A stretch of DNA of 64,000 bases, from the NCBI GenBank assembly GCA_036507075.1, contig DASXQR010000010.1:26485-90484 (forward strand). Direction: 5' to 3'. Under the pieces are notes generated by a model. That model was not told the origin of the DNA. It saw only the letters and a program-made list of their open reading frames with translations, and made no database searches. Below are positions 36,647 to 40,120 of the stretch, in pieces (positions within the stretch are counted from its first letter, which is position 1; each line of letters starts with the position of its first letter). The position numbers were made by a program, and so were the translations under genes. The DNA comes from Acidobacteriota bacterium (GTDB lineage: Bacteria > Acidobacteriota > UBA6911 > JACQSX01).

Positions 36647-39600
36647 TCAACTGATGCTGCCGGTACTGAGCTCGATTGCCTGGCGCCGGACAGCAGAAAG
36701 ATCCAACTTGCCGGTTCCCAATAACGGGATGTTTTCAATGCGAAAAAATGCGTTCGGGCGGGGTATCCAAAGGTTTGGAAGGCCTGACTTGTCCAGGTTG
36801 GCAAGAAGCCGCTCCAGCACCTGGTCGGGCAAGGTATGCAGAACGACGAGCTTTTCTCCTTTGCGATCGTCTGGAACGCCCACCACAGCCAAAACCTGCT
36901 CGCCGATTCCCGTCAACTCCTGCAGCGCTTCCTCGATGCGTAAATGCGGGACCATCTCACCTCCAATCTTGCTGAAGCGCGAAAGCCGGTCTGTAACGTG
37001 AATGAAGCCATCCTCGTCAACCATGGCGATGTCACCGGTTACGTACCATCCGTCGCGAATCACCTCGGCGGTTTTATCCGGCCTGTTCAGATAACCGATC
37101 ATCACATTGCCCCCCTTGACCAGAAGCAAACCGGGCTGTCCGCTGAGAACCGGCTGCAGGGTCGCAGGATCGACAATTTGTACGCTCACGCCCGGAAGAG
37201 GTTGTCCGATGGTTCCGCTCCTGTGACCTGCCTGGTAAAAGCCGGCGCTTCGAAAATCGGGCACGTTTACCGAGACGACAGGCGAGCACTCCGTGCAGCC
37301 ATAACCCTCCATGACGTGAATACCGAATCTCTCTTCAAACGACCGGGCAACGGCGGCGCTCAACTTTTCGGCCCCCGCGATGACATATTGAAGACCCCCC
37401 AGCAACTCGGGCTCGCAGCGGCGGATCAGGCTCTGGAGCATTGTGGGCGTGGCAAGAAGCATGGTGGCGCGGCAACGCGCCGCCAGCACTCCCACAGCGC
37501 GTGAATCAAAAGGATTCGGATGGTAAATCGCAGCCATCCCGTTCAGCAGCGGAAACCATATGGTTGCGGTAAACCCGAACGAGTGGAAAAAGGGAAGAAT
37601 CCCCATGATCCGATCGTGACGGGTCGGGGCAAAGACTTGCGCCAGCCCTTCCAGATTTGAGCGGATATTGCGATGCGAAAGCATCACTCCCTTGGGCTCG
37701 CCCGTACTCCCGCTGGAGAAAATGATGGTGGCCAGAGTGTCCACACCCTTTGATTCAGCGGCGCTCAGACGGCGGGCAAGGAAACCAGCAGGCAGCAATA
37801 TGGCGGAGAGCAGAGCGAACGCGAACCGGAAGACCGTCTTCTCGCCCGCCAGGTCTTCCATCAGGAGGGAGGACGCGGGAACAGCCAGCCGCACTTTTTC
37901 AAGGAACTGACGAGAGGTGATGATCGTTCGTATTTCGCATTGGCGGACGCACGAGTCAAAGATCGGCTGAGATACGGTGTAATTGAGATTTACCGGCACC
38001 TTGCCGCACAGCAGAGCGGCGATATTGGCGACGGCGCCCGCCACGGAAGGCGGCAACAGCAACCCGATTTTTTCGTCCGCCGCAAACCGGCTCCGCAGCA
38101 GGCGCGCCAGAAAGACCGAACGCACCAGCAGCCCAAGGTAGCTCACGCGCGGGTTGAGTCCGTCGGCGACCGCCAGGCGGAAAGGATGGCGTCGTGCCTG
38201 TCGCGCAAAATCGACGTGAAGCGGTTTCAGATACTGTTGGCGAAGGCTGAATGCCTCGGCGGCAAGCCTCTGTACTTCCTGGCGTACTTCCGCCGCGCCG
38301 GAAGCTGCCCGCATGGGAGCTCCAAACGTGACAGTGACCGGATACGGAATGCGGCGGGGCCGCTTCCACAAGAACCGCCCCCGCTGAAAGCTGAAAATGC
38401 TGCCCCAGACGCCGTCCAGATGGACAGGGATAATCGGCGCATCGACACTTTTCATGATGCGCTCGAATCCTCGGCGAAACGGCAGGAGCTGGCCGGTGCG
38501 CGTGATTTGTCCTTCGGCAAAAATGCATACCACGCGGCCTTCCTGAATGGCGCGCGAAGCCTGACGCAACGATCGGATGACTTCGCGAGGGCCTCCGGTC
38601 GACGAAATCGGGATCGATTTCATCATGCGCGCAAATGGCCGAATCAATTTCTGGTCATAAAAGCCCTTGAACATCACAAAACGGATGCGCCGGTCGGTGG
38701 AGGCGAGCAGCAGCAGCGCATCCACAAATGAGAGATGGTTGCAGACAAACAGCGCGCCGCCGCGCTCCGGAATGTTGTCGCGGCCGATCACCCGGATCCT
38801 GTAAACCGTGTGGACCAGTACCCACAAACAAAACCGCAGCAGCGCTTCGGGCAAAAGCACGCAAAGATACGCGGTGACGGCAGCCGTGATGCAGCCGGTA
38901 AGGAGAAAAATCTGGGAGGGCGACCATCGCAGATGCACCGTCACGATCCAGTAAACTCCGGCCGAGACGAGCATCCCCACAAAGGTCATCAGATTGGCGG
39001 CCGCGATCATGGCGCCCTTGCTTTCAGGCTGGGGCCGATGCTGAATCAGCGCGTTGACGGGAACGGCAAAAAAACCCGCCGAGAATCCAACCGCCGCCAG
39101 CAACACGCCGGTCTGAAGGAAGGTGGTGGCGTAAAACGCCAGCGCGGTCGCGAACAGCGCCAATCCCGCGGACCCGAGCGGCACCAGGCCATATTCAATT
39201 TTGCTGTGCGAAAGATAACCGGCGACGTAGCTTCCCAGCCCGATGCCGACGGCCAGGATGGCCAGCAAATATCCGATGCGGGTTTCCGGAAGGTGAAGCT
39301 GGTCCTTTCCCAGCAGAATAATGTTCAACTGGAAAAGAAAACCCAGGAACCAGAAATAGATATTCCCCAGAATGGCCAGCCATAGGACGCGGTCCCGGCG
39401 CGCCAGCGACAAATTGCGCCAAACGTCTTTTAGAAAGTTCCATTGGAACGCGGCCTTCGGGTTAGCCGCAGGAACAGCGGTAATCGCCAGGCTGGTTATA
39501 ACTCCCGCCAAAGCTAGGATCGTGAGGGCGATTCCCGACAGGTAAAGCCTCGACCGCAGGTGTTCCACCGGGAATGCGCCTGCAACCGTGCCGAGTATGA

Positions 39601-40120
39601 TCGCCACGAAGGTGGTCAGTTCCAAAACGCCGTTGCCCCAGGAGAGCTCCTTTTCAGGAAGGAGTTCCGGGAGGATCCCGTATTTGCTGGGGCTGAAAAA
39701 GGCGGCCTGCGCTCCGGTCAGGAACAACAACGCCATGGAAAAGTACAGGTTTCCGTACCAGAAAGCGATGGTTGCAAAGATCATGATGACCACCTCGACC
39801 AGCTTGGTCCAGATGGTCACAGAGCGTTTGCTGTATCGATCGGCCAGAAATCCGCCATACATGGAGAAAAACAGAAAAGGCAGAATAAACAGCGCTCCGA
39901 TGGCGGAGACTCTTTGATTCCCCTGAATCTCGGACGAAGCGGTCAGCAGTGCCAGCAGCGTGATCACGTTCTTGTAGGCGTTATCGCTGAAAGCACCCTG
40001 AAACTGCGTCGCTATCAAAAACCAAAAGCCCCGCTTCGATTGAGCGGAAGGGATTTCAGACCGGCCCACAGAGTTAACGACCTGCTGATTTGGAGTCGGC
40101 GGAGTTGTATTGCTGTTCAT
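36647..40120 (-). CDS. Triple-domain fusion: LplT-like MFS lysophospholipid transporter, then PlsC-type acyltransferase, then Aas-type AMP-binding acyl-ACP synthetase
   Basis: N-terminal ~430 aa with 12 TM helices (MFS). Middle: ..LFVCNHLSFVDALLL.. (HxxxxD) and FAEGQITRTG. C-terminal: ..TIIFSSGSTGEPKGVMLSHRNI.. AMP-binding motif and ..GYGCTE.. / ..TGDIA...DGF..TDR.. adenylation motifs. Confidence 0.85.
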   Translation of the reverse strand: MNSNTTPPTPNQQVVNSVGRSEIPSAQSKRGFWFLIATQFQGAFSDNAYKNVITLLALLTASSEIQGNQRVSAIGALFILPFLFFSMYGGFLADRYSKRSVTIWTKLVEVVIMIFATIAFWYGNLYFSMALLFLTGAQAAFFSPSKYGILPELLPEKELSWGNGVLELTTFVAIILGTVAGAFPVEHLRSRLYLSGIALTILALAGVITSLAITAVPAANPKAAFQWNFLKDVWRNLSLARRDRVLWLAILGNIYFWFLGFLFQLNIILLGKDQLHLPETRIGYLLAILAVGIGLGSYVAGYLSHSKIEYGLVPLGSAGLALFATALAFYATTFLQTGVLLAAVGFSAGFFAVPVNALIQHRPQPESKGAMIAAANLMTFVGMLVSAGVYWIVTVHLRWSPSQIFLLTGCITAAVTAYLCVLLPEALLRFCLWVLVHTVYRIRVIGRDNIPERGGALFVCNHLSFVDALLLLASTDRRIRFVMFKGFYDQKLIRPFARMMKSIPISSTGGPREVIRSLRQASRAIQEGRVVCIFAEGQITRTGQLLPFRRGFERIMKSVDAPIIPVHLDGVWGSIFSFQRGRFLWKRPRRIPYPVTVTFGAPMRAASGAAEVRQEVQRLAAEAFSLRQQYLKPLHVDFARQARRHPFRLAVADGLNPRVSYLGLLVRSVFLARLLRSRFAADEKIGLLLPPSVAGAVANIAALLCGKVPVNLNYTVSQPIFDSCVRQCEIRTIITSRQFLEKVRLAVPASSLLMEDLAGEKTVFRFAFALLSAILLPAGFLARRLSAAESKGVDTLATIIFSSGSTGEPKGVMLSHRNIRSNLEGLAQVFAPTRHDRIMGILPFFHSFGFTATIWFPLLNGMAAIYHPNPFDSRAVGVLAARCRATMLLATPTMLQSLIRRCEPELLGGLQYVIAGAEKLSAAVARSFEERFGIHVMEGYGCTECSPVVSVNVPDFRSAGFYQAGHRSGTIGQPLPGVSVQIVDPATLQPVLSGQPGLLLVKGGNVMIGYLNRPDKTAEVIRDGWYVTGDIAMVDEDGFIHVTDRLSRFSKIGGEMVPHLRIEEALQELTGIGEQVLAVVGVPDDRKGEKLVVLHTLPDQVLERLLANLDKSGLPNLWIPRPNAFFRIENIPLLGTGKLDLSAVRRQAIELSTGSIS

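Follow-up and report, generated by a model that had tools for sequence, protein, structure and literature searches.

Described counterparts of the protein considered here include the lysophospholipid flippase LplT and the acyltransferase/acyl-acyl carrier protein (ACP) synthetase Aas of E. coli. As a peripheral protein at the cytoplasmic surface, Aas binds LplT via its transferase domain, and the two proteins form a functional physical complex that depends on this domain (J Biol Chem 2024, PMC11416262). The same study states that lplT and aas are fused into one open reading frame (ORF) in some bacteria. A fused LplT-PlsC-ACS protein has also been drawn as an example of a fusion between a major facilitator superfamily (MFS) transporter and an enzyme (Chem Rev 2021, PMC8154325, Fig. 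19b, citing Harvat et al. 2005). A fused protein of P. aeruginosa, PA3267, has been noted as well (eLife 2022, PMC8926400); its deletion sensitises cells to T6SS (type VI secretion system) attack, as described in a section on resistance to lipase effectors (Nat Commun 2025, PMC12663445), and PA3267 mutants show heightened sensitivity to T6SS lipase effectors (PMC8926400, PMC12663445). Here we analysed a stretch of 64,000 nucleotides (nt) from an Acidobacteriota bacterium (the window; GenBank assembly GCA_036507075.1, contig DASXQR010000010.1, positions 26,485 to 90,484 of the forward strand), in which a gene on the minus strand (36647..40120; coordinates are those of the window unless assigned to another locus) encodes an LplT-Aas fusion in one polypeptide. 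With high probability, this protein is a regular representative of NF006386 (PRK08633; transporter class TC 2.A.1.42), the widespread family of fused LplT-Aas proteins.

The minus strand carries a frame that stays open from 40177 down to 36647; its first ATG lies at 40120 and its stop codon occupies 36649-36647, and translation of the whole ORF revealed neither an internal stop codon nor a change of frame between 40120 and 36647. The product initiated at this ATG has 1157 amino acids (aa). The original prediction of a single polypeptide of 1158 aa was right about the one unbroken ORF, but had included the stop codon in the count of 1158 codons. The corresponding protein deposited at NCBI (P0001), which stems from an Acidobacteriota metagenome-assembled genome (MAG) and is named 'acyl-[ACP]--phospholipid O-acyltransferase', is 100% identical and has 1140 aa, a length that would result from an alternative GTG start at 40067..40069 (-). 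The start codon is thus ambiguous, which is of no consequence because conservation among homologues starts only near residue 30, the N-terminal 27 residues being unconserved. No sigma-70-type promoter was found before the fusion gene, and such an absence is uninformative for Acidobacteriota.

Pfam matched MFS_1 (residues 48-386, E 1.8e-27), Acyltransferase (residues 441-567, E 1.1e-23) and AMP-binding (residues 638-1011, E 2e-69), followed by a weak match to AMP-binding_C (residues 1062-1138). The three main domains, whose presence had been left for Pfam to verify, occur in the order foreseen, i.e., MFS, PlsC-type acyltransferase, adenylation domain, all within the single unbroken ORF, and the MFS portion is indeed fused in frame ahead of the Aas-like acyltransferase and adenylation domains. 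The family assignment is carried by NF006386, a curated full-length NCBIfam equivalog of this three-domain architecture with 1147 positions, whose profile hidden Markov model (HMM) scored 1378.4 bits against a curated cut-off of 1221 and aligned with residues 28-1151 over model positions 7-1144. The second fused family, NF005291 (PRK06814; 1140 positions), was matched over model positions 9-1132 as well, but its score of 716 bits lies under the cut-off of 1349, and we therefore place the protein in the sister family NF006386. Among the stand-alone models, the LplT equivalog NF008397 is the best-scoring MFS model for the N-terminal half, and the match to the Aas equivalog NF005959 spans residues 432-1148, corresponding to model positions 6-711 of 719. 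Pfam domains, alignments with E. coli LplT and Aas, and NF006386 agree in supporting the initial domain reading of an LplT-like MFS transporter, an acyltransferase and an acyl-ACP synthetase.

The putative LplT-like flippase domain comprises residues 28-423 (38852..40039, (-)), as delimited by Pfam MFS_1, NF008397, BLASTP comparison to LplT, hydropathy and an AlphaFold2 (AF2) model. In BLASTP, residues 29-390 aligned with E. coli LplT at 28% identity (E 9e-19). The AF2 model (mean predicted local distance difference test score (pLDDT) 82.3, predicted template-modelling score (pTM) 0.75) was built from an alignment of 54 homologues that are 55-75% identical to the query, and the same alignment underlies the conservation counts given below. 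In this model, residues 30 to 422 form 12 long helices, and a further helix occupies the central loop (residues 229-242), with pLDDT values mostly of 85-95, and the hydropathy profile agrees with the 12-transmembrane (TM) MFS fold of the model. The motif AFSDNA in TM1 (39977..39994, (-)) aligns with 'AFGDNA' of E. coli LplT, such that D46 corresponds to D30, the residue altered in the inactive D30A allele of LplT that has served as a control in E. coli (PMC13170283); the position is occupied by D in 43 of the 54 homologues and by E in the other 11. K146, the counterpart of K120 in E. coli LplT, is invariant in the alignment. Judged from NF008397, the MFS half is LplT-like, yet no E. coli-type equivalog. 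Residues near R236 and E351 of E. coli LplT, which may be functionally important, align here with Q and T; these positions were not used as evidence.

The C-terminal part of the protein (residues 435-1145) aligned with residues 9-708 of the 719-residue E. coli Aas at 31% identity (E 2e-94). Its first portion, a predicted PlsC-type lysophospholipid acyltransferase domain (residues ~439-632, equivalent to Aas-T, residues 1-203, of E. coli; 38225..38806, (-)), is defined by Pfam, the Aas alignment and similarity to the PlsC structure 5kym in the PDB (E 3.7e-9). The HX4D motif HLSFVD (H462-D467; 38720..38737, (-)) lies opposite NHVSFID of E. coli Aas, with H462 to D467 aligned to H36 to D41. Both H462 and D467 are invariant in 54/54 homologues, and the H36A exchange in E. 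coli Aas abolishes acylation (PMC11416262, PMC13170283). The E536-G537 motif is invariant in the homologue alignment, too. The remainder of the protein (residues ~633-1157; 36650..38224, (-)) is a probable adenylate-forming, acyl-ACP synthetase-like domain including the C-terminal subdomain, recognised by Pfam AMP-binding and AMP-binding_C, the Aas alignment and Foldseek, which returned target-normalised template-modelling scores (TM-scores) of ~0.8 to MatB and feruloyl-coenzyme A (CoA) synthetase. Within the P-loop SSGSTGEPK (S802-K810; 37691..37717, (-)), residues S802, S803, G804, T806, G807 and K810 are invariant in 54/54 homologues; the same holds for T943-E944, D1030, R1045, K1051 and the C-terminal K1138, all of them aligned with E. 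coli Aas. The core motifs of adenylate-forming enzymes (P-loop, GYGxTE, YxTGD, hinge R/K and C-terminal catalytic K) are all intact, and the catalytic residues across the domains are intact as far as they are comparable. A side observation in this domain is a hydrophobic helix-turn-helix, FRFAFALLSAILLPAGFLARRL (residues 761-786; 37763-37840, (-)), which resides in the N-terminal adenylation subdomain, is confidently predicted by AF2 and falls into a region that aligns with E. coli Aas; it might represent a membrane-dipping or fatty-acid entry element of the synthetase.

The two halves are connected by a junction helix, PEALLRFCLWVLVHT (residues 424-438; 38807..38851, (-)), that leads from TM12 into the acyltransferase's first strand. 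In the AF2 model a flexible linker is absent between TM12 and the acyltransferase, both being joined by helix 424-438 itself. P424, where TM12 ends, and Y440, in the first acyltransferase strand, are exactly 16 residues apart in 54/54 aligned homologues, and residue 9 of E. coli Aas aligns with residue 435, inside the junction helix. Given the usual N-in/C-in topology of MFS proteins, the enzyme domains would face the cytoplasm, like Aas in E. coli. Continuity of the two halves was also evident from independently assembled genomes, where a single tblastn high-scoring segment pair (HSP) extended from query position 60 or before to position 1130 or beyond in 77 of 84 loci; three of the other seven loci end at a contig edge, and in the remaining four the best HSP starts deeper in the query.

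The fused LplT-Aas architecture is already known, curated and very common. Of 8000 candidates scored, 4392 proteins in the database were matches at E<=1e-10. All three Pfam domains are present in each of the protein matches listed (120/120), at lengths of ~1066-1183 aa. A scan with one genome per species identified relatives in at least 591 species genomes; the best 80 loci of these at least 591 genomes match over essentially full length and belong to about seven phyla (Acidobacteriota, Verrucomicrobiota, Nitrospirota, Hydrogenedentota, Omnitrophota, Planctomycetia and Bacteroidota). The same fusion, for which the original prediction had proposed a look at relatives, is therefore seen among the protein matches listed and the best 80 loci. 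Where the fusion was taken as a natural Rosetta-stone confirmation of LplT-Aas coupling, the coupling itself holds, but the point is not new: the fused form had already been published (PMC8154325, PMC11416262), and the physical complex has since been shown.

Based on homology with the E. coli two-protein system, we infer a mechanism in which the MFS domain would flip lysophospholipids, originating from phospholipases or from lipoprotein and lipid A acylation, from the outer (periplasmic) to the inner (cytoplasmic) leaflet of the cytoplasmic membrane. The adenylation domain would convert a free fatty acid and ATP to acyl-AMP and then transfer the acyl chain onto a separate holo-ACP, and the HX4D domain would use this chain to acylate the flipped lysolipid at its free hydroxyl, which yields a diacyl phospholipid again. 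The short helix of fixed length may keep the acyltransferase next to the transporter, on the cytoplasmic surface of the membrane, thereby favouring hand-over of the lysolipid. The E. coli system is likewise the basis on which we presume the substrate, the use of ACP rather than CoA as acyl carrier, the flipping direction and the physiological role. The notion of a 'whole repair pathway in one protein' captures the joining of transporter, acyltransferase and adenylation domains, but is overstated, as a carrier domain is absent: no carrier-protein domain was among the Pfam matches of the fusion protein, and a separate holo-ACP would therefore still be needed, by analogy with E. coli Aas.

Several points weigh against equating the fusion protein too closely with its E. 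coli counterparts, or against the proposed mechanism. Neither stand-alone equivalog cut-off was passed, NF008397 (LplT) scoring 149.7 bits versus a cut-off of 297 and NF005959 (Aas) 351.5 bits versus 886, and the identity to E. coli LplT amounts to just 28%. With both cut-offs missed, the relation to E. coli LplT and Aas is one at the family level only. The functions of the fused proteins were stated to be uncharacterised in 2024 (PMC11416262), and our literature search for an in vitro assay of a fused LplT-Aas protein found none. Furthermore, an artificial fusion of E. coli LplT and Aas disrupted LplT expression (PMC11416262), and the geometry of the natural fusion therefore need not mirror that of the E. 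coli complex. Finally, the synthetase domain of the fused protein was labelled 'acyl-CoA synthetase' in the 2021 review (PMC8154325), and ACP rather than CoA as the acyl carrier is an assumption on our side.

With the same chemistry, the protein could also fulfil another role, namely to take up mainly lysolipids and free fatty acids of exogenous origin as a nutritional supply for membrane synthesis, instead of repairing damage caused by phospholipases or acyl transfer. Any free fatty acid would be a substrate for activation by the adenylation domain, NF004971, a model of the chlamydial AasC type (fatty-acid--ACP ligase), was matched as well, and the gene neighbourhoods are unrelated and variable in close relatives, as might be the case for a housekeeping uptake gene. 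However, the sole in vivo data on a fused member, those on P. aeruginosa PA3267, indicate defence against lipase effectors, and we consider scavenging as the main role unlikely. The two roles are not mutually exclusive, though, and sequence alone cannot separate them.

Upstream of the fusion gene, on the same strand, lie a gene for a PD40/TolB-like beta-propeller protein (41769 to 40228, (-)) and one for a xylose-isomerase-like TIM-barrel protein. Downstream, after 214 nt, five tightly packed lipid genes follow on the same strand (36432 to 31310, (-)). The first encodes a YnbA-like cytidine diphosphate (CDP)-alcohol phosphatidyltransferase (~36432 to 35683, (-)), whose best NCBIfam matches are archaetidylinositol-phosphate and phosphatidylinositol-phosphate (PIP) synthases, all under their cut-offs, and the second a YnbB-like CdsA paralogue (35679 to 34732, (-)), assigned by homology to E. 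coli YnbB. A PlsC-like acyltransferase (34639 to 33911, (-)) is specified by an extra gene between the ynbB-like and ynbC-like genes; then come a YnbC-like hydrolase-methyltransferase (33945 to 32122, (-)) with 47% identity (E 1e-179) to E. coli YnbC and a YnbD-like DSP phosphatase (32167 to 31310, (-)), whose alignment with E. coli YnbD (430 aa) is confined to the C-terminal part of the latter.

This arrangement could mean that the fusion protein acts together with the products of the ynbABCD-like operon, feeding re-acylated or salvaged lipid into a CDP-alcohol pathway for a special lipid. In this acidobacterial lineage, the fusion gene might then have been recruited to the head of the operon, with salvaged lysolipids or fatty acids being channelled into a specialised lipid and not into bulk repair. 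The tight packing of five lipid genes on the same strand, with homologues of YnbA, YnbB, YnbC and YnbD plus a PlsC-like acyltransferase only 214 nt away, speaks in favour of this idea, but a gap of that size permits separate transcription, and ynb-like genes adjoin the fusion gene neither in the three closest relatives examined, according to their gene contexts, nor in 83 of 84 related loci searched by tblastn. The sole other locus among the 84 with a ynbA/ynbB/plsC-like trio near the fusion gene belongs to a Verrucomicrobiota MAG (L011; 4171-6616, 13503-14705). There, the trio is located 3.4 kb upstream of the fusion gene, with an opposite-strand Ser/Thr kinase gene in between, and a further acyltransferase gene lies directly downstream of the fusion gene, which adds a faint hint at a recurrent lipid-gene neighbourhood. 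No YnbC- or YnbD-like gene was detected near any other fusion gene in the 84 related loci. With one partial recurrence in 84 loci, we rejected the idea that the fusion gene and ynb-like genes generally share a conserved operon; functional cooperation at the present locus appears decidedly unlikely to us, and we regard recruitment of the fusion gene to a specialised lipid pathway in this lineage as equally improbable. Unrelated to this issue, the locus of the nearest homologue (L003; Acidobacteriota MAG, 75% identical) harbours a Cas1-Cas2 fusion gene (191-1585) ~1.7 kb upstream of the LplT-Aas gene.

That the gene is an assembly or sequencing artefact, i.e., separate lplT and aas genes joined by a missed stop codon or frameshift, is conceivable for a sequence from a MAG, but was rejected as very unlikely in view of a junction without any indel in 54/54 homologues, the one HSP spanning both halves in 77 of 84 independent assemblies, the match of the curated full-length HMM over positions 7-1144 of 1147, and the opposite order of the separate E. 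coli genes, in which loss of a stop codon could not yield LplT followed by Aas.

As a natural fusion, the protein may be of use for structural work. We found no PDB entry covering LplT, Aas or the fusion: searching the PDB with the sequence of the whole protein returned generic adenylate-forming enzymes only, a search with the N-terminal 640 aa returned PlsC (5kym) only, and in a Foldseek comparison of the AF2 model against the PDB solely the adenylation domain was matched, with query-normalised TM-scores of at most 0.38. The original prediction, which had pointed to structural usefulness, was justified in this respect, with LplT and Aas both lacking a PDB entry. Being a natural fusion whose rigid junction has a fixed length, the protein represents a reasonable target for cryo-electron microscopy (cryo-EM) of lysolipid hand-over to the acyltransferase, because no experimental structure was found and because the artificial E. 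coli fusion disrupted LplT expression. As a discovery, the locus carries little weight, considering the curated family, the drawing in a review, the P. aeruginosa phenotype and the LplT-Aas coupling demonstrated directly in E. coli. What the locus adds on a small scale is a domain order opposite to that of the E. coli operon, a rigid junction whose length is invariant, and the ynb-like lipid operon nearby.

Compared with the known systems, the fusion protein resembles E. coli LplT plus Aas in that both are aligned end to end and no extra domains are present (397 + 719 aa versus 1157 aa). It also retains D30 and K120 of LplT and, on the Aas side, the HX4D motif, the P-loop and the C-terminal lysine. 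It differs in combining in one polypeptide what E. coli distributes over two proteins, at identities of just 28% and 31%. At the K-12 locus (L001, 2670-6015), lplT and aas are adjacent separate genes, as had been claimed, with aas (b2836) preceding lplT (b2835) and an overlap of 8 bp, whereas the domain order of the fusion is LplT followed by Aas. Owing to this reversal, the split and fused forms are not interconverted by simply losing or gaining a stop codon, and the fusion is no plain read-through of an E. coli-type operon. The downstream five genes are homologous to the poorly characterised E. coli operon ynbABCD, the PlsC-like acyltransferase being an addition at the present locus. Relative to the fused families, order and length are the same as in NF006386 (PRK08633), from which the protein deviates merely by its unconserved N-terminal 27 residues with the ambiguous start, while NF005291 (PRK06814) shares architecture and length, with the protein scoring under its cut-off. 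P. aeruginosa PA3267 (aas), for which a phenotype has been reported, is according to its published description likewise a single polypeptide homologous to both E. coli LplT and Aas.

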